Origin: a virus
Lineage: Duplodnaviria; Heunggongvirae; Uroviricota; Caudoviricetes
Length of the DNA: 6,065 nt
Strand: one strand, 5' to 3'
Virus record (IMG/VR): IMGVR_UViG_638341086_000005
Shown: positions 1 to 6,065 of the stretch, one piece after another
Numbering within the stretch: position 1 is the first letter of the stretch
How the letters are laid out: each line of letters opens with the position of its first letter
Notes under the pieces: generated by a model
What the model was told of the DNA's origin: nothing
What the model saw: the letters and a program-made list of their open reading frames with translations, nothing else
Databases searched by the model: none
Position numbers and translations under genes: made by a program

Positions 1-66
1 ATACATGTTGATTACACTATGCATCGACAACGATGCCACATTTTTGGCTGGTTGGCAAATCTGTCA

Positions 67-252
67 TCAGGGCGGACAACAACGCCACGATCTCATCTTT
101 CTTGGGCAATTTTTAAGAAAATCCTCAAGGGCAAATCTTTTTGGCCTTGCTTCCTGTTCATGGTCAGGCATTTCATCCATTTCTCTTAATTTTTTTTCTA
201 CCTGTCTTTCAAGTATGGATAATGCGATTTCCCGTAATTCTTCGTTGTTCAT
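67..252 (-). CDS. hypothetical small protein (61 aa), second gene of leftward regulatory operon
   Basis: Minus-strand ORF with strong SD AGGAG 6-7 nt upstream of ATG (revcomp of 253-270 = ...caggagtagacaATG). Charged, helical-looking N-terminus (MNNEELREIALSILERQVEKKLREM...). Sits 57 nt downstream of the 310..507 gene on the same strand. No family recognised. Confidence 0.5.
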   Translation of the reverse strand: MNNEELREIALSILERQVEKKLREMDEMPDHEQEARPKRFALEDFLKNCPRKMRSWRCCPP

Positions 253-309
253 TGTCTACTCCTGTAAAGAAATGCGCCGTAGTTCCTCACACCACGGCGC
301 TGATAGTGA

Positions 310-507
310 TTATTCTGATTCTTTGGCCTTCCGGCGCTGTTCATATTTTAATTTGCGTCCACAGGCATCTAAGACCCATGCGGAAAAATTAGCACTAGGA
401 TTAGTTAATTTTTCTTGTTCAACGCTGGCATCAATCCCATCTATAAGCTCATGTGGGAATCGAATATTTTTCTTTGCTGATTTGTTGTTTTTGTTACCGC
501 TAGACAT
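310..507 (-). CDS. YlcI/YnfO-like small DNA-binding protein (RHH-like), putative element regulator
   Basis: Minus-strand ORF, SD GAGGTG 6 nt upstream of ATG (revcomp of 508-525). Motifs NIRFPHELIDGIDA and NFSAWVLDACGRKL resemble, from memory, prophage YlcI/YnfO proteins and the helix-2 region of ribbon-helix-helix regulators. Positioned divergently from the rep operon next to the palindromic operators. Confidence 0.55.
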   Translation of the reverse strand: MSSGNKNNKSAKKNIRFPHELIDGIDASVEQEKLTNPSANFSAWVLDACGRKLKYEQRRKAKESE

Positions 508-534
508 TGATGCACCTCACTTAAATGGACTTTA

Positions 535-614
535 TGGGCGCACACAATACAGTAAAAAAAATGAGATGTTAAGTATTGACATGTGCGCACACATGATTTT
601 AATCTGTGCGCACA
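535..614. promoter_or_regulatory. divergent control region: three TGTGCGCACA palindromic operators overlapping a sigma70-like rightward promoter
   Basis: Perfect 10-bp palindrome TGTGCGCACA at 582-591 and 605-614; 9/10 copy TGGGCGCACA at 535-544. Candidate promoter: -35 TTGACA 576-581, 16-bp spacer that is mostly the palindrome, -10 TTTAAT 598-603; the third palindrome lies at the predicted start site. Lies between divergent genes 310..507(-) and 713..916(+). Confidence 0.55.
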
Positions 615-712
615 GTTTGAGTTTTGTTACTCAAATTAAGCAACGCCCCGCAGTGCTCGCAACACATGCAGGGCGTCTAACCACCAACGATAGCAACAGT
701 ATCGAGGCAGCT

Positions 713-916
713 ATGAGAAATCATACCACACACCCGCAAGGGCGGGACTCGCACAACCTGAATAAATACATCTGGCGTTTTATCGCCCTGAGCACGGCAC
801 AACCGCGCGTGATTACCATTGAGGCCACCAGCGAACAGGAAGCGCGTCAGCAATCTCCTGATGGCTGCGTGATGGTATTCGCCGCCCGTATTCGTCAGGG
901 GGTGTTCCATGCATGA
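713..916 (+). CDS. small protein (67 aa), Icd-like (host cell division inhibitor family) candidate
   Basis: In-frame ATG at 713 inside the spurious-looking long ORF 5..916, with GAGG 5 nt upstream (704-707). Sequence YIWRFIALSTAQPRVITIEATSEQEARQQ...VMVFAARI matches my recollection of Icd-like small proteins found upstream of primase genes in P4-like elements. Family assignment is from memory only. Confidence 0.5.
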   Translation: MRNHTTHPQGRDSHNLNKYIWRFIALSTAQPRVITIEATSEQEARQQSPDGCVMVFAARIRQGVFHA

Positions 917-1229
917 CATGACCAATTACCAGTACCTGATTAATCCGCATTTTAACTGTGAGCATGATATTGCTAAAAAGGTTTATTCCGCTGCGGATGG
1001 GGCTACTGACAATATATCAATGGCTGTTTCGTCAATTGGTAGCCTGATGTGGTATGCGTCAGAAAATAAGGAATATGACGAAAAGGCCATGCGCATTGAT
1101 ATGGGTAATATCGGTTTGTTACTGGCAATGCTTGGACAGTTTGATATTTCGTTACGGTGCACCATTGAAAATGCCACAGATGCATTAAATGCTATAAAGA
1201 AAGCGAATACTGATTTAAATCGGGGATAA
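909..1229 (+). CDS. hypothetical protein (106 aa), AT-rich orphan gene
   Basis: ORF whose ATG (909) overlaps the stop of the upstream gene by 8 nt (ATGCATGA); G-rich SD-like GGGGGTG at 896-902. Visibly more AT-rich than the rep gene. No family recognised. Confidence 0.5.
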   Translation: MHDMTNYQYLINPHFNCEHDIAKKVYSAADGATDNISMAVSSIGSLMWYASENKEYDEKAMRIDMGNIGLLLAMLGQFDISLRCTIENATDALNAIKKANTDLNRG

Positions 1230-1235
1230 ATAATC

Positions 1236-1535
1236 ATGAGAACATATTTATCTGGCTTGACTGCCAGCGGTTATGCACACCCCCAAATTATCCCCGGCGC
1301 TATTTATCTGGATAAGAACGGTAACAGAGTAACGGTAAAAGAACTGATGTTTGACCGTGTGTATTTTATCCGTGATGGCTATTCATTTCTTAGTTCGCTG
1401 AACGTGGAGATCTTTATTAGCAGATTCAGGCGGGAAATCCCGCTTTCCAGAAATAACCATGTGTCATGTATGGATGTTGATAAAAAACTACAGGAACTAA
1501 AAAACATGATTGCCGCGTGGAGAGAGCAGAAATGA
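1236..1535 (+). CDS. hypothetical protein (99 aa), AT-rich orphan gene
   Basis: ORF starting 7 nt after the previous stop. Its stop overlaps the rep start codon (ATGA at 1532-1535), indicating translational coupling into rep. AT-rich. No family recognised. Confidence 0.5.
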   Translation: MRTYLSGLTASGYAHPQIIPGAIYLDKNGNRVTVKELMFDRVYFIRDGYSFLSSLNVEIFISRFRREIPLSRNNHVSCMDVDKKLQELKNMIAAWREQK

Positions 1536-3655
1536 AAAAAGCGCCAAATTTAAAACACCAGCCACGTGACAAAATGACGGAAGTCATCATTTTTGCGGGT
1601 AGTGATGCGTGGGCACATGCGAAGCAGTGGCAGGAACAGGACGGGCGACTGGCTGGCGACAGCGTGCCTCCTGTCTGGCTTGGAGAGCAACAACTTGCCG
1701 AACTGGATAAGCTGCAAATTGTGCCGGAAGGCCGAAAATCAGTACGCATATTCAGGGCCGGACATCTTGAGCCAGTAATGATCAAGGCGATTGGTCAGAA
1801 GCTGGCGGCGGCAGGCGTACAGGATGCAAATTTTTACCCTGATGGAATGCACGGTCAGGAGGTGGAGAACTGGCGCGAATATCTAGCCCGTGAGCGGCAG
1901 AATCTTTCTGATGGTCTGGTTATTGAGTTTCCGGTAAAGAAAAAAGATACCGGAAGCCATAGCGATGACGAATTAAAGCCACGCGTTGAAAGTCGCGCCG
2001 ATGGTGTTTTCTGGGTAACGCCCAAAGTGGATAAGCAGTCAGGCGAAATTATCCGGCCTGAGACGTGGTTATGTTCTCCGCTTGAACTACTGGGAACGGG
2101 GACGATCGGTAAAGAGCATTACCGCGTGATGCGCTGGAAAAAAACCGCAAACCATGAAGTCATCACAATGGCGATCCCGTGTGGTGGTATCGGCGACCGT
2201 GACGGCTGGCGGTTACTTAAAGATCACGGGCTGAACGTGACAACCAACGGCAAATACAGGGCAATCCTGGCGGACTGGATGCAGTTAAGCGGAAGCCATG
2301 AGGAATGGCAGTTAAGCACAACAACGGGCTGGCATTTTGGCGCGTACATCATGCCGGACGGTTCGATCATTGGTGAATCTGAAAAACCGATCCTGTTTAC
2401 CGGAAAAAGCGCCGCGATTAACGGTTATTCCGTGGCGGGCACGGCGGATGGCTGGCGCGACAGCGTGGCGCGTCTGGCTGGCGGTAATGCCTCAATGATG
2501 CTGGGTGTGGCAACGTCACTGGCAGCGCCTTTAATTGGCCTTGTGGGTGCTGACGGCTTCGGGGTGCATCTTTTCGAACAGTCATCGGCAGGTAAGACCA
2601 CCACGCAGAACATCGCATCAAGTTTATGGGGAGAGCCGGACGCGCAGCGGCTGACCTGGTACGGCACGGCGTTAGGTATTGCCAATGAGGCCGAGGCCCA
2701 TAATGACGGGCTTTTACCACTGGATGAGATAGGCCAGGCCGGAAATGCGCGGGAAGTGTCAACGTCTGCTTATACGCTGTTTAACGGTTCAGGGAAATTG
2801 CAGGGGGCGAAGGATGGCGGCAACAGGGAGATCAAACACTGGCGAACGGTGGCAATCAGCACCGGAGAAATGGACGTTGAGACATTCCTCAAAAGTGAGG
2901 GGATAAAAGTTAAGGCGGGGCAGCTTGTCCGACTGCTTAACGTTCCGATGGAAAAAGCCACGAAATTTCACGAATACAGCAACGGTAAGGAACATGCTGA
3001 CGCGTTAAAGGATGCCTGGACAGCAAATCACGGGGCGGCGGGTCGTGAGTGGGTTAAATGGCTGGCAGGCCACCAGCAGGAGGCAAAGGATACGGTAAGG
3101 GAATGCCGCGAACGGTGGCGCAACCTGATACCGGAGAGCTACGGCGAGCAGGTCCACCGCGTGGGTGAACGTTTCGCCATACTGGAGGCCGCGCTTGTGC
3201 TTTCCGGTCATGTAACTGGCTGGGTCGTGCAGGAATGCCGCGACGCGATACAGCATAACTTTAATGCCTGGGTGAAGGAGTTCGGCACGGGTAACAGGGA
3301 ATTTAAACAGATGGTTGAACAGGCTGAGGCGTTTTTGTCGTCGTTTGGGTTTAGCCGCTACCTTCCGTACCCCAATACAGATGAGCGTGATTTACCGATT
3401 AAAGAGCTTGCCGGATACAGAAAAGGGAGCATTCGCAACGAAGATGACGAGATGCGCTATTACACGTTCCCGCACGTGTTTGAGAGTGAGATAGCGAAGG
3501 GATTTAATCCGGCGCATTTTGCGCGTGCCCTGGATGCTGCCGGAATGCTGGAGAAGGGAAGCGATCGCCGATACAAAAAAAAGGCGCTGGGCAAGATTGG
3601 GGGTAAGCAGCATGTTTTTTACGTGCTGATGTTCCAGCCTGATGATGAAGATTAA
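1532..3655 (+). CDS. replication initiator, primase/helicase-like P-loop NTPase (DUF927-type / satellite Pri-Rep-like)
   Basis: Longest ORF in the window. Probable start ATG 1532 (SD GGAGAGAG at 1519-1526) rather than the GTG at 1517. Walker A-like FEQSSAGKTTT (~2575-2607) and Walker B-like LLPLDEIG (~2710-2735). TTTGWHFGAYIMPDGSIIG segment resembles DUF927-type replication proteins. Followed directly by the iteron array, as expected for a cis-acting initiator. Confidence 0.8.
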   Translation: MKKAPNLKHQPRDKMTEVIIFAGSDAWAHAKQWQEQDGRLAGDSVPPVWLGEQQLAELDKLQIVPEGRKSVRIFRAGHLEPVMIKAIGQKLAAAGVQDANFYPDGMHGQEVENWREYLARERQNLSDGLVIEFPVKKKDTGSHSDDELKPRVESRADGVFWVTPKVDKQSGEIIRPETWLCSPLELLGTGTIGKEHYRVMRWKKTANHEVITMAIPCGGIGDRDGWRLLKDHGLNVTTNGKYRAILADWMQLSGSHEEWQLSTTTGWHFGAYIMPDGSIIGESEKPILFTGKSAAINGYSVAGTADGWRDSVARLAGGNASMMLGVATSLAAPLIGLVGADGFGVHLFEQSSAGKTTTQNIASSLWGEPDAQRLTWYGTALGIANEAEAHNDGLLPLDEIGQAGNAREVSTSAYTLFNGSGKLQGAKDGGNREIKHWRTVAISTGEMDVETFLKSEGIKVKAGQLVRLLNVPMEKATKFHEYSNGKEHADALKDAWTANHGAAGREWVKWLAGHQQEAKDTVRECRERWRNLIPESYGEQVHRVGERFAILEAALVLSGHVTGWVVQECRDAIQHNFNAWVKEFGTGNREFKQMVEQAEAFLSSFGFSRYLPYPNTDERDLPIKELAGYRKGSIRNEDDEMRYYTFPHVFESEIAKGFNPAHFARALDAAGMLEKGSDRRYKKKALGKIGGKQHVFYVLMFQPDDED

Positions 3656-3677
3656 TCCCCTGTGTGAGGAAAAAAAT

Positions 3678-3993
3678 TGCGGGTTATGCGGGTTATCCTG
3701 TGTATAAGTGTATTAAGTGCATGAATATAAAGGAAACCAATAACCCGCACGTAACCCGCAAAATGGCATTTATAACCCGCAAAAGCACGATTATAACCCG
3801 CAGGCGAATAACTGAAGTAACACCGGACAGTCATGCGTAACCCGCAGAAAAAACCCCGTTTGCGGGTTATTTTGAGCGTTTTGCGGGTTACGTGGTGAGC
3901 AAATAATAAACAGGGCGTTTTGCAAAATACTGATATAAAAGGATAAAAAATGGTTAGCACGCTAAGATAACCCAATAACCCGCATAACCCGCA
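3678..3993. repeat. iteron array / putative origin of replication (9-mer TAACCCGCA, 11 perfect copies, both orientations) with AT-rich tracts
   Basis: TGCGGGTTA at 3678-3686, 3687-3695, 3861-3869, 3882-3890. Reverse complement TAACCCGCA at 3741-3749, 3752-3760, 3773-3781, 3794-3802, 3838-3846, 3976-3984, 3985-3993, plus degenerate TAACCCAA at 3968-3975. Spacings of 9, 11, 21, 21 and 21 bp are near helical-turn multiples. AT-rich stretches at 3901-3960 and 4001-4013 (TATATATATAAAT) are candidate unwinding elements. No credible coding capacity (only a low-complexity antisense ORF). Confidence 0.75.
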
Positions 3994-4025
3994 CATGTTT
4001 CTATATATATAAATTGAGGTGGCAA

Positions 4026-4277
4026 ATGACCAGAACACGCAGAGACAGAACAGAGCCAAAATATAAAGCGTTAGACATGACTGAGCACACCTTAAAGGTG
4101 GCAATCAGAACGATAGACCGCCACACGCGGGAAGGATACGCGAAGGAACATCCCGACCTGATAAGCGCATTCATGACCACGGCGGCGGCAAACTTTGCCA
4201 CGCTGACAGAACGGGAGATTGCCGAAGCGGAACAGGTAACAACCATCAACGTTAAAACCGGAGAGGTGGAATCATGA
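4026..4277 (+). CDS. hypothetical protein (83 aa), translationally coupled to ssb
   Basis: ATG at 4026 with SD GAGGTGG at 4016-4022; the track's 4014 start is a TTG a few codons upstream. Stop overlaps the ssb start (ATGA at 4274-4277). No family recognised. Confidence 0.55.
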   Translation: MTRTRRDRTEPKYKALDMTEHTLKVAIRTIDRHTREGYAKEHPDLISAFMTTAAANFATLTEREIAEAEQVTTINVKTGEVES

Positions 4278-4684
4278 CAGCACAGATAGCGGCTTACGGT
4301 CGGCTGGTGGACGACCCGCAGGTAAAACAGACCAGCAAGGGCACACCGATGACGCTGGCGCGTATGGCGGTATCACTGCCATGCAGTCAGGCACAGGACG
4401 GACAGGCGACGTTATGGCTATCGGTCATCGCATTTGGTAAGCAGGCCGACTTCCTGGCTAAACATCAAAAAGGCGACGTTGCCAGCGTATCCGGCACGAT
4501 GCAGGTCAGCCAGTGGACCGGACAGAACGGGGAGACGCGTCAGGGTTATCAGGTTATTGCAGACAGCGTAATCAGTGCCCGTGCGGCACGTCCTGGCGGG
4601 AACAGACGCAAAACCACAGGCGCACAGGGTAATCAGCCACCAGCGGGAGGCGATGACCCTTACGGTGATGATATTCCGTTCTGA
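4274..4684 (+). CDS. ssb: single-stranded DNA-binding protein (SSB)
   Basis: OB-fold-like N-terminal region (GRLVDDPQVKQTSKGTPMTLARMAV...WLSVIAFGKQADFL...SVSGTMQVSQWTGQNGETRQGYQVIADSV), a Gly/Pro/Gln-rich linker, and the canonical acidic SSB tail ...DDPYGDDIPF at the C-terminus. SD GAGGTGGA at 4263-4270. Confidence 0.85.
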   Translation: MTAQIAAYGRLVDDPQVKQTSKGTPMTLARMAVSLPCSQAQDGQATLWLSVIAFGKQADFLAKHQKGDVASVSGTMQVSQWTGQNGETRQGYQVIADSVISARAARPGGNRRKTTGAQGNQPPAGGDDPYGDDIPF

Positions 4685-4694
4685 GGGGGTGACG

Positions 4695-4967
4695 ATGGTA
4701 CATGACCGCATAGCGGAAGAACTCGAAGCGAAAGGATTTTACCGGAGGGCGGCGGCGCGATGGGGTGAAGTCATGATGCTGGTGGAGACAGACAAGGAAC
4801 GGCATCACATCACGATGCGACGGCTGGAATGTTCCAGGAAGGCACAGAGGCCACCGGAGCCGCCGGATAATTACGGAGACCTGAAAAAGGCGGTCGATCG
4901 CACTTATGCCGAAATGGGTATGGATGGTGCTGGTGATGAAATATGGCGAAATTACCAGGACAGATAA
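4695..4967 (+). CDS. PerC-like small transcriptional activator family protein (90 aa)
   Basis: ATG 4695 with SD GAGGGGGTGA (4683-4692) just after the ssb stop; the track's 4575 start would overlap ssb out of frame. N-terminus MVHDRIAEELEAKGFYRRAAARWGEVMM resembles, from memory, PerC-family proteins encoded by E. coli prophages. Followed by an intrinsic terminator. Confidence 0.55.
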   Translation: MVHDRIAEELEAKGFYRRAAARWGEVMMLVETDKERHHITMRRLECSRKAQRPPEPPDNYGDLKKAVDRTYAEMGMDGAGDEIWRNYQDR

Positions 4968-4973
4968 TCACAC

Positions 4974-4996
4974 AGCCGGAGCAATCCGGCTTTTTG
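4974..4996 (+). terminator. rho-independent terminator ending the rep-ssb-perC-like transcription unit
   Basis: Stem AGCCGGA (4974-4980), loop GCAA, stem TCCGGCT (4985-4991), running into a T tract (TTTTTGT) 7 nt after the TAA stop at 4965-4967. Confidence 0.65.
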
Positions 4997-5117
4997 TCAT
5001 GTTTTGTAAATTATTTGTTCGTGGTTGTTCCACGTTGTTCGCTGACCGGATCGGCATATTTTACCCGAACTGAATCATGATTATTCTCGCCCGTGGTGCC
5101 AGGACGCTGGGGCCACT

Positions 5118-5163
5118 TTCCCGCCTGTTAATGTGCTCGCCAATATTCATTACCAGGCGGGAA
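5118..5163. promoter_or_regulatory. perfect 10-bp inverted repeat TTCCCGCCTG-N26-CAGGCGGGAA in the capsid-gene upstream region
   Basis: TTCCCGCCTG at 5118-5127 and its exact reverse complement CAGGCGGGAA at 5154-5163. No following U tract, so more likely a protein-binding dyad or RNA structure than a terminator. Confidence 0.35.
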
Positions 5164-5217
5164 AATGATCGGTGCGATTGCTGATTTCCTTATGAAAAAC
5201 GGTTGAGTGTTTGCCGC

Positions 5218-5254
5218 GTCCTGGAGTTCCTTACTTAACTTCAGGACTTTTTTT
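5218..5254 (+). terminator. terminator-like hairpin plus T7 tract abutting the capsid start codon; possible attenuator / RBS-sequestering leader structure
   Basis: Stem GTCCTGGAG (5218-5226) pairs with CTTCAGGAC (5239-5247): 9 bp with one G-U. 12-nt loop. Seven Ts at 5248-5254, then ATG at 5255. The only SD-like element for the capsid gene (AGGA 5243-5246) lies in the 3' arm of the stem. Confidence 0.4.
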
Positions 5255-5986
5255 ATGCCGAGAATAATCGAATTACGCCAGCAGAAAACCGCCATTAAAA
5301 ATCAGATGCGCGACATGCTGGAGAACGCGGAAAAAGAAAACCGCAGCCTTAACGATGCTGAGGGCGCAAAATTTGACGAATTACGCGCTAAAGCTGAATC
5401 CCTCGATAAAGACATTTCCCGCCTTGAAGCCATTGCAGACGAAGAGCGCAGTAAACCAGGCAAAAACAGCCAGACCACTGACCCCGCAGAACTACGCAAC
5501 TACATTCTGACAGGTGAAACCCGCGCATTAAGTACAGGCGTTCCCGCTGATGGTGGTTATACCGTTATCCCCGAACTGAACACCGAAATCATGCGAATGC
5601 TGGCGGATGAGTCCACCATGCGCCGCATCTGTACCGTGAAGAAAATCAGCAGCAACGAGTTTAAGCAGCTTGTTTCCGCTGGCGGTGCGACCGTTAACCA
5701 CGGTGAAGAGGGTAAGACACGCGAACAGACCAGCACCCCGCAGATTAACGAGGTGAGCATTAAGCTGTATCCGGTCTATGCGTACCCGCGCACCACACAG
5801 GAAATCGTGGATTTTTCCGATGTGGACATCCTTTCATGGCTGACGGGTGAGATTGGCGACACCTTCACGGAAACCGAAGAAAGCGATCTGGTTGTGGGCG
5901 ACGGTGACAAAAAGCAAAAGGTTTTTTATCCGTACCCCGTGCAGAGAAGAACGACAAAGAGCGTGATTTTGGTACGTTGCACGTAA
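5255..5986 (+). CDS. major capsid protein, HK97-type (N-terminal ~60%; reading frame interrupted near 5909-5914)
   Basis: ATG 5255 (the track's 5207 start is a GTG inside the hairpin). N-terminal coiled-coil-like delta-domain region (IIELRQQKTAIKNQMRDMLENAEKENRSLNDAEGAKFDELRAKAESLDKDISRLEAI) followed by GGYTVIPELNTEIMRMLADESTMRRICTV, typical of HK97-fold capsid proteins. In-frame product stops at 5986, but the ORF continues in the -1 frame (see next feature). Confidence 0.7.
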   Translation: MPRIIELRQQKTAIKNQMRDMLENAEKENRSLNDAEGAKFDELRAKAESLDKDISRLEAIADEERSKPGKNSQTTDPAELRNYILTGETRALSTGVPADGGYTVIPELNTEIMRMLADESTMRRICTVKKISSNEFKQLVSAGGATVNHGEEGKTREQTSTPQINEVSIKLYPVYAYPRTTQEIVDFSDVDILSWLTGEIGDTFTETEESDLVVGDGDKKQKVFYPYPVQRRTTKSVILVRCT

Positions 5987-6065
5987 TTAAACCTTCCGAA
6001 TCTCTGGCGTGGACATCTGCGGACCCGCTGATCGACCTGAAATTTGCATTACGTAAAAATACCGC
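5909..6065 (+). other. continuation of capsid coding sequence in -1 frame (open to window end), implying a frameshift / pseudogene / sequencing indel
   Basis: From the A-rich run GACAAAAAGCAAAAGG (5906-5921) the -1 frame reads ...KAKGFLSVPRAEKNDKERDFGTLHVIKPSESLAWTSADPLIDLKFALRKNT with no stop to 6065 and E. coli-like codons. Joined to the upstream frame it gives GDGDKKAKGFLS, close to the GDG-x-KP-x-G-(I/F)-L motif of HK97-family capsids. That frame has a TGA at 5905-5907, so the switch must occur within 5908-5920. Confidence 0.45.

Follow-up and report, generated by a model that had tools for sequence, protein, structure and literature searches.

An internal fragment of an EcCIEDL933-type capsid-forming island of Escherichia coli, most likely with a sequence error at its capsid end

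EcCIEDL933 is a 15.4-kb capsid-forming phage-inducible chromosomal island (cf-PICI) of Escherichia coli EDL933 with the gene content described below. It is induced by the phages HK106 and HK446, requires alpA, builds its own small capsids and takes only the tails from its helper (bioRxiv 10.1101/2022.09.08.507074). SatelliteFinder counted 969 elements of this class, which occur in 13% of Enterobacteriaceae genomes (PMC10085698). Here, we analyzed the IMG/VR record IMGVR_UViG_638341086_000005, a stretch of 6,065 nt to which we refer as the window. We assign the window with confidence to the EcCIEDL933 / Sp7 / CP-933C family of E. coli cf-PICIs, as a piece from the interior of such an island, and its broken capsid reading frame is most likely due to a sequence error in the last ~160 bases. 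The window spans the half of the island that serves regulation and replication, together with the start of the head-gene operon. Elements of this kind have been described and studied in detail before, and reading the window as a capsid-forming satellite is correct but ordinary.

Genes were called from a listing of open reading frames (ORFs) and from profile scans of the window proteins with Pfam, NCBIfam and PHROG. Along the window, a leftward YlcI/YnfO-family gene is followed by an Icd-like gene, a gene for a 106-aa protein, a DUF4222 gene, rep, a set of iterons, a gene for an 83-aa protein and the genes encoding a single-stranded DNA-binding protein (SSB), a PerC-family protein and the capsid protein. 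The original prediction, made from the letters of the window, had given the order as a divergent gene, an Icd-like gene, rep with an iteron origin, ssb, a perC-like gene and an HK97-type capsid gene, and the family scans recovered each of these genes; the genes for the 106-aa and DUF4222 proteins were not on its list. It had also noted that the window has no integrase or attachment site, in agreement with our ORF listing and our tRNA/att and family scans, which revealed no integrase domain, tRNA or att site within the 6,065 nt. An Rfam search of the window at E <= 1 returned two matches, both at chance level.

Relatives of the window and the class of the element

A megablast search against 5,426 complete E. 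coli genomes gave matches to the window in 1,899 of them, and 2,704 of the 2,707 matching places are chromosomal. EDL933 carries its match in a single place only. Plasmid records contributed six partial matches, with some of these records being chromosome-sized, and no DNA match was obtained in 50,697 phage records. By exact look-up of the window Rep protein, we located an island in GCA_038070665.1 (locus L036) that is 99.94% identical to window positions 875-6065 and 100% identical over 875-5908. This island carries int, AlpA, an intact 385-aa capsid, Peptidase_S78, portal, HCP, connector, HNH, Terminase_4 and TerL, and it is inserted beside pntB, which corresponds to the tqsA site by comparison with loci L003 and L004. 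Positions 645-6065 are also 99.1% identical to the island of strain TOE17, which according to the annotation covers about 14 kb between yljB and clpS.

The annotated relatives examined as the best full-length ones were those of TOE17, NMBU-W12E19, DETEC-S792 and Sakai. All four show the same order: an integrase gene, the gene for a small helix-turn-helix regulator of the Phage_AlpA family, the genes of the window and then the head/packaging block, which consists of capsid, HK97-family prohead protease, portal, head closure, head-tail connector, HNH, TerS and TerL. By annotation, complete relatives measure about 14-15 kb and occupy three sites (cspD/yljB-clpS, roxA-phoQ and tqsA), and int and alpA lie upstream in every relative with available flank. 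Each fetched locus that carries this capsid allele together with at least ~5 kb of downstream sequence has the block from protease to TerL, at 87-100% amino acid identity. Because the block is present in every such informative locus, the capsid allele is tightly linked to it. The int and alpA alleles are far more variable (57-100% identity).

The Sakai copy is annotated as 'prophage Sp7; untypable', and Sp7 corresponds to CP-933C, or O-island 51, of EDL933 (PMC3378721). Since strain, size and gene content agree, we infer that Sp7 / CP-933C is EcCIEDL933. For class assignment, we used the 11 core components of SatelliteFinder and the criteria of Alqurainy et al. The window contributes a primase-replicase gene (rep, 1532-3655) with an adjacent origin of 11 iterons (3678-3993) as well as an HK97-type major capsid gene of its own, the frame of which, in this sequence, breaks at 5909 and again at 6055. 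On what the window covers, the element is a cf-PICI, with the other defining features contributed by near-identical relatives and by the published experiments. The view that it is a capsid-forming satellite of the PICI class, which the original prediction had put forward, is borne out by this near-identity to EcCIEDL933-family islands that have the complete block and no annotated tail or lysis genes.

Two other identities have to be weighed. Islands of this kind were historically annotated as ordinary or defective prophages ('cryptic prophage CP-933C', 'Sp7, untypable'), and the head and packaging genes are indeed of phage origin; older annotations as well as PMC3378721 label the island a degraded prophage. 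We nevertheless regard it as very improbable that the window is a piece of such a prophage. None of the complete relatives examined, the GCA_038070665.1 island included, has annotated tail or lysis genes, and the tail, lysis and immunity modules within about 30 kb or more that characterize a functional temperate phage are not annotated in any of them; their small size and the lack of a DNA match in the phage records point in the same direction, and the prototype has been mobilized experimentally as a satellite (10.1101/2022.09.08.507074). The capsid lineage is likewise distant from phages of normal size. Identity to the window capsid protein is at least 58% in four 'phage' records, of which two are satellite-sized (15-16.5 kb), one is an unannotated record of 3.8 kb and one measures 106.5 kb, whereas it is at most 37% in the remaining listed phages of 38-40 kb. 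These distances agree with the published separation of cf-PICI from phage capsids. The original prediction would have taken a large terminase gene in the flanks as the mark of an ordinary phage; this expectation was faulty, since terL is a core gene that cf-PICIs carry by definition (PMC10085698). A large terminase gene therefore does not disqualify a satellite, and the case for a phage would have to come from tail and lysis genes. Islands of the EcCIEDL933 kind should not be annotated as defective prophages.

Just as improbable in our view is a P4-like satellite, which the original prediction had named as an option, or a classical PICI that does not form its own capsids. Related elements do carry an AlpA-type regulator and an Icd-like gene, and the exact 707-aa Rep of the window is also encoded by classical PICIs at the cspD-clpS site, which have lambda gpE-like, gpD-like and Nu1-like late genes (L029, L030, L032, L033 and L035). 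That the same Rep is found next to different late genes shows free recombination between the early and the late modules of PICIs and cf-PICIs. Membership in the P4-like group is contradicted by the genes: psu, sid, delta, epsilon/ash and the alpha primase-helicase match no ORF of the window, and psu, sid and delta are not annotated in the complete relatives. As a DUF927 protein, Rep is akin to SaPI Rep and Cch, and Pfam did not detect the D5_N/DUF5906 replicase type in it. Classical PICIs, in turn, are defined by the absence of portal and connector, and SatelliteFinder treats portal and head-tail connector/attachment proteins as forbidden components for them (PMC10085698). The HK97 capsid allele of the window is linked to portal, connectors, HNH, TerS and TerL in every informative locus, which sets the element apart from the classical type through its relatives and not through the window itself.

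Some points weigh against our assignment to the EcCIEDL933 family. The window has neither int, alpA and att nor any gene past the capsid gene, so that the full architecture is taken from relatives. Modules reassort, as seen for the identical Rep in classical PICIs. The exact mosaic of the window, searched for as a two-anchor pattern, was not found in viral, genome or metagenome collections, and exact look-up of a 116-aa Icd-like ORF gave no match. Finally, equating Sp7 / CP-933C with EcCIEDL933 relies on the three agreements named above and not on an accession stated in the paper.

The capsid gene and its reading frame

The window ends within the HK97-type major capsid gene (5255-6065, plus strand; TIGR01554, E 1.8e-43) and covers its first ~270 of 385 codons, that is, the first 70%. 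The first 218 amino acids show two differences from the solved 'Major head protein' PDB 9gyi (216/218 match). At ~5909, one A is gone from an A6 run, and the shifted frame runs into a stop at 5986. A second one-base loss, again in an A6 run, is located at 6055, and at 5982 the window has a C where the GCA_038070665.1 island has a G. These three are the only differences between both sequences over 5,191 aligned nt, and all of them fall into the last 157 (P about 3e-5). Likewise, the final 166 nt contain three homopolymer runs of at least five bases, and two of these are shorter by one, compared to none of 31 runs that differ from TOE17 between 633 and 5900, A7 and A8 runs included (P = 0.005).

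Neither deletion was encountered elsewhere. The first one is present in none of 357 complete E. coli genomes that contain this segment, none of 28 fetched loci has either of them, and an exact search with the deleted capsid form was negative in the viral, genome and metagenome collections, whereas the intact form of the segment is found in 24 IMG/VR contigs. In the complete relatives, the capsid reading frame is uninterrupted over 385 aa, and restoring the two A's in the window yields a protein in which 270 of 271 residues match the TOE17 capsid, with no other damage. Because the differences cluster, the A runs are shortened, the deletions are unique to the window and the repair is clean, we favor low sequence quality toward the end of a contig or read as the most likely cause of the frame break. 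This call is made from the sequence letters, and it presumes that the window ends where a contig or read ends.

The original prediction had suggested a decaying or regulated capsid gene; the frame break on which this was based is present in the sequence, while decay and regulation both fare less well. Real frameshifts would make the element a recently inactivated cf-PICI, either immobile or fed with capsid protein in trans by a co-resident cf-PICI. We consider this unlikely, yet it deserves more weight than any other alternative discussed here: the sequence as given does hold two frame-breaking deletions, up to seven matching places per E. coli genome make a supply in trans conceivable, and single genes are inactivated in relatives, as illustrated by the PerC stop in TOE17, a TerL split by IS5 in NMBU-W12E19 and a split portal gene in L037. 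Set against this is that the window and the GCA_038070665.1 island are identical over the rest of the 5.2-kb alignment, with both losses and the sole base exchange confined to its last 157 nt. Each deletion removes a single base from an A6 run, a classic type of sequencing error, and neither is shared by any other sequence examined. The shifted frame moreover stays open, the repaired protein matches the TOE17 capsid as given above, and natural decay would hardly produce a pair of independent frameshifts only about 150 nt apart in a gene that has not diverged otherwise. The location of the breaks in A runs could also point to programmed ribosomal frameshifting or transcriptional slippage as a means of capsid regulation. 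To this idea we attach hardly any credence, as the A5 form was not found among the 357 genomes or the 28 loci, whose complete genes are read without interruption, and programmed shifting would require two separate corrective shifts. To our knowledge, A5 is shorter than the runs known for efficient slippage. Before gene decay is called from a frameshift that lies right at the end of a sequence, relatives or read quality should be consulted.

Replication and regulation

The 707-aa replication initiator/helicase Rep (1532-3655, plus strand), known as pri-rep in the PICI literature, belongs to the DUF927 proteins (E 1.6e-48). It is 97% identical to ECs_1582 of Sakai Sp7, and an index of the public assembly collection lists the exact protein in 172 blocks. 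Among solved structures, Rep matches the 'Pathogenicity island protein' PDB 8tch of Staphylococcus aureus pathogenicity islands (SaPIs) with an E value of 1e-12 and the helicase 5dgk with 0.0025. NCBIfam gave a sub-threshold match to the SCCmec Cch helicase model, and a helix-turn-helix match of the Cch type, likewise sub-threshold, lies at the C-terminus. In our searches, the N-terminal ~170 residues were not common to SaPI Rep and Cch, and a primase appears for this part only as a PHROG label.

Directly after rep, 11 exact copies of TAACCCGCA between 3678 and 3993 form a putative replication origin (0.07 copies expected by chance). These iterons occur in both orientations as opposed sets with A+T-rich stretches between them. 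Among the fetched loci, the same 11 iterons, in identical number and spacing, are confined to the five with this Rep allele and are absent from the other 23; a relative with a RepA-type helicase has different repeats in the equivalent position. The assignment as origin is supported because the iterons pair specifically with the Rep allele. For E. coli PICIs, origins with iteron sets flanking an AT-rich region have been described, and a cloned segment comprising pri-rep and ori replicates (PMC6092414); the layout in the window fits this description.

Four smaller genes of the rightward early operon surround rep. Upstream are the gene for a 106-aa protein of unknown function (909-1229, plus strand; phrog_15327, E 2.8e-70), which is annotated as hypothetical in relatives, and a gene for a 99-aa DUF4222 protein (1236-1535, plus strand; Pfam DUF4222, E 1.4e-16). 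The latter is an allele of the RgdR family and takes the same position as ECs1581 (RgdR) in Sakai Sp7, a regulator of type III secretion in O157 (PMC3378721). Identity between the two is only 29%, and residues 20-22 of the window protein read PGA compared to the RGD motif of RgdR. Downstream of the iterons, an 83-aa protein of unknown function (4026-4277, plus strand; phrog_1231, E 5e-53) is encoded next to ssb, as is also the case in relatives. The SSB itself (4274-4684, plus strand; 136 aa) ends in DDIPF and matches both Pfam SSB (E 4e-17) and TIGR00621 (E 1.4e-15).

How these genes act together can be proposed from the experiments on EcCIEDL933 and EcCICFT073, from which the following steps are carried over to this copy. 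A helper phage would turn on the alpA gene of the island, located just upstream of the window. The island would be excised, followed by expression of the rightward early operon with its Icd-like, 106-aa, DUF4222, Rep, 83-aa, SSB and PerC products. By analogy, Rep, as a helicase related to SaPI Rep and Cch, is expected to bind the 11 TAACCCGCA iterons just past its own gene and thereby to initiate replication, presumably assisted by the SSB of the island. The head operon would then provide small HK97-type capsids, starting with the capsid gene and continuing in relatives with protease, portal, two connectors, HNH, TerS and TerL. These capsids would receive island DNA only, and the tails would come from the helper phage.

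At the left end, the window carries a leftward unit of two genes. The 61-aa ORF that forms the second gene (67-252, minus strand) matched no family in the Pfam, NCBIfam or PHROG scans; in a 100% identical stretch of DETEC-S792, it is annotated as hypothetical (WP_001058301.1). The first gene (310-507, minus strand) encodes a 65-aa protein of the YlcI/YnfO family (Pfam DUF3950; NCBIfam NF041551 / YlcI_YnfO_N, E 3.5e-16), and Pfam and NCBIfam record no known function for these families. The sequence pattern of the protein is reminiscent of ribbon-helix-helix proteins. Over its full length, a profile built from seven YlcI/YnfO alleles was matched weakly but consistently by Arc repressor, HP0222, NikR and a further protein of the Arc family (E 0.018-1.2), and on the basis of these matches a ribbon-helix-helix fold is plausible. 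A single-sequence AlphaFold model is of low confidence (pLDDT 73, pTM 0.34) and has no strand. Of the 'divergent regulator' in the original prediction, the leftward gene itself has thus been confirmed, with its role as an Arc-like regulator being plausible.

The divergent region between both transcription units (508-712) contains a candidate promoter/operator segment (535-614). The element TGTGCGCACA is a perfect 10-nt palindrome with two copies 23 bp apart (582-591 and 605-614) and a third copy with one mismatch (535-544), giving three matches compared to 0.28 expected. Reading the sequence by eye, we noted a TTGACA at 576-581 and a -10-like TTTAAT at 598-603. The first perfect palindrome is positioned between these two elements, the second one just downstream of TTTAAT, and the copy with the mismatch overlaps a leftward promoter-like site (572-544). 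In TOE17, the YlcI/YnfO allele is only 43% identical and a different palindrome pair, TGGTACGTACCA, is found in the same place. Because both the allele and the palindrome pair differ there, a resident repressor/operator switch around the divergent promoters is suggested, a feature not described for Gram-negative PICIs; with two clear cases of an allele and its operator pair, the numbers are too small for a claim of covariation. Gram-negative PICIs are thought to depend on the activator AlpA and to be without a resident repressor.

The first gene of the rightward early operon encodes an Icd-like protein of 67 aa (713-916, plus strand; NF033153, E 9e-20), which also matches phrog_6196, 'transcriptional repressor' (E 1e-45). 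In identical DNA, the RefSeq annotation (PGAP) starts this gene at an ATG that corresponds to window position 566 and would draw promoter and operators into the coding sequence. More likely, translation starts at the ATG at 713, which is preceded by GAGG. Exactly this protein is present in many related islands in combination with other replicases and other late modules, and window positions 1-700 are 100% identical to an island that carries a RepA-type helicase.

The early operon ends with a 90-aa PerC-family protein (4695-4967, plus strand; Pfam PerC, E 2.8e-43), which is intact, PchE-like and 89% identical to PchE of Sakai. In the otherwise 99% identical TOE17 island, the gene is annotated as a pseudogene with an internal stop (L001 19050-19322); the two genes differ by a single base, at window position 4742. 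LEE1 reporter fusions reportedly did not respond to the PerC-like genes of EcCIEDL933 and EcCICFT073 (PMC11773190). Downstream of perC, a terminator scan found a terminator-like hairpin at the end of the operon (4974-4991, plus strand; -13.2 kcal/mol, z = -3.7). A segment of ~330 bp with a 74-aa ORF (WP_001132080.1) is present in Sakai, NMBU-W12E19 and DETEC-S792 and missing from both the window and TOE17. It is flanked by a 27-nt direct repeat equal to window positions 4969-4995 (compare L002 15392-15772), which is consistent with loss of the segment through recombination between the repeats.

Between perC and the capsid gene, three TTGTTC boxes with a 10-bp period form a candidate regulator-binding site (5015-5040, plus strand; two overlapping matches compared to 0.06 expected). 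A scan of 686 kb of related loci revealed this phased motif upstream of the capsid gene in 32 of them. Fifteen loci have it between int and alpA and six immediately ahead of int, and it also occurs near the right end of the element. The latter two settings belong to islands with an integrase of the cspD-clpS type, and a single match just after alpA in L007 lies outside all four settings. Further coordinates are L004 15197-15248, L003 11068-11103 and L001 12654-12680 and 26885-26911. These boxes may be a shared site for AlpA, the excision factor or the integrase arms and could thereby tie the control of alpA or excision to the head operon.

Immediately before the capsid gene, an 11-bp hairpin followed by a run of seven T's (5218-5254, plus strand; -16.6 kcal/mol, z = -2.4) ends one base ahead of the ATG, with an AGGA Shine-Dalgarno sequence within its 3' arm. 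This hairpin is conserved in all 28 sequences compared (the window and 27 loci), in which variation is too low for a covariation test, and the whole capsid leader of ~270 nt is conserved to the degree of coding sequence. In form, the hairpin resembles a terminator or a gate on the translation of the head operon. By analogy with the gene order of HK97, a cos site is expected between HNH and terS and not in the capsid leader. As an antiterminator acting at this hairpin, we had considered the AlpA of the PICIs and dropped it: the PICI proteins are 62-74 aa long and linked only by name to AlpA of Pseudomonas aeruginosa, an antiterminator with a Q-like fold and functional residues up to position 142 (PMC9371919).

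From these motifs, we tentatively propose that a branch of the (cf-)PICI family may hold a control circuit not described so far for Gram-negative PICIs, although we regard this as the less probable outcome. In such a circuit, the Arc-like YlcI/YnfO protein would act as a repressor on the TGTGCGCACA operators at the early rightward promoter, and the head operon would be gated by the TTGTTC boxes and the terminator-like hairpin in front of the capsid gene, via the same factor that controls alpA or excision. For researchers working on cf-PICIs, the motifs offer testable sites for the switching of the early and the head operon, and they are the sole leads of any novelty in the window.

Comparison with known satellites

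Like the window element, the satellite phage P4 is an integrative satellite with a regulator of the AlpA/Vis type and an autonomous replicon. Unlike it, P4 remodels the capsids of P2 by means of Sid, Psu and Delta, has no capsid, portal or terminase gene of its own and replicates by alpha, which belongs to another replicase family (PMC10085698, PMC6092414). The SaPI Rep and SCCmec Cch proteins resemble the replication module, with a homologous DUF927 helicase core and, directly downstream of rep, an iteron origin. Sequence identity to them is low, and the N-terminal region of the window Rep described above is not shared. With classical PICIs of the EcCICFT073 type, the int, alpA and rep modules are held in common, up to the exact window Rep (PMC6092414). 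These islands differ in their gpE-like, gpD-like and Nu1-like genes and in their use of helper capsid proteins, and they are without HK97 capsid, portal, connectors, HNH and TerL.

The GCA_038070665.1 island departs from the window in having another left module over positions 1-875 and in its full A6 runs at the two sites that read A5 in the window. Compared to EcCIEDL933 (O-island 51 / CP-933C / Sp7), the window has a left module of its own, with the YlcI/YnfO gene, the palindromic operators, a different Icd-like gene and a different DUF4222 allele, and it is without the ~330-bp segment that encodes the 74-aa ORF between perC and the capsid gene. From the DUF4222 gene on, both share the same order of Rep, iteron origin, 83-aa gene, SSB, PerC and HK97 capsid, the origins have identical sets of 11 iterons, and the DNA of the capsid region is ~98% identical. 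The window thus adds a further copy to a family of satellites for which description, experimental tests and surveys are already available, and it contributes little that is new to the picture established with EcCIEDL933.

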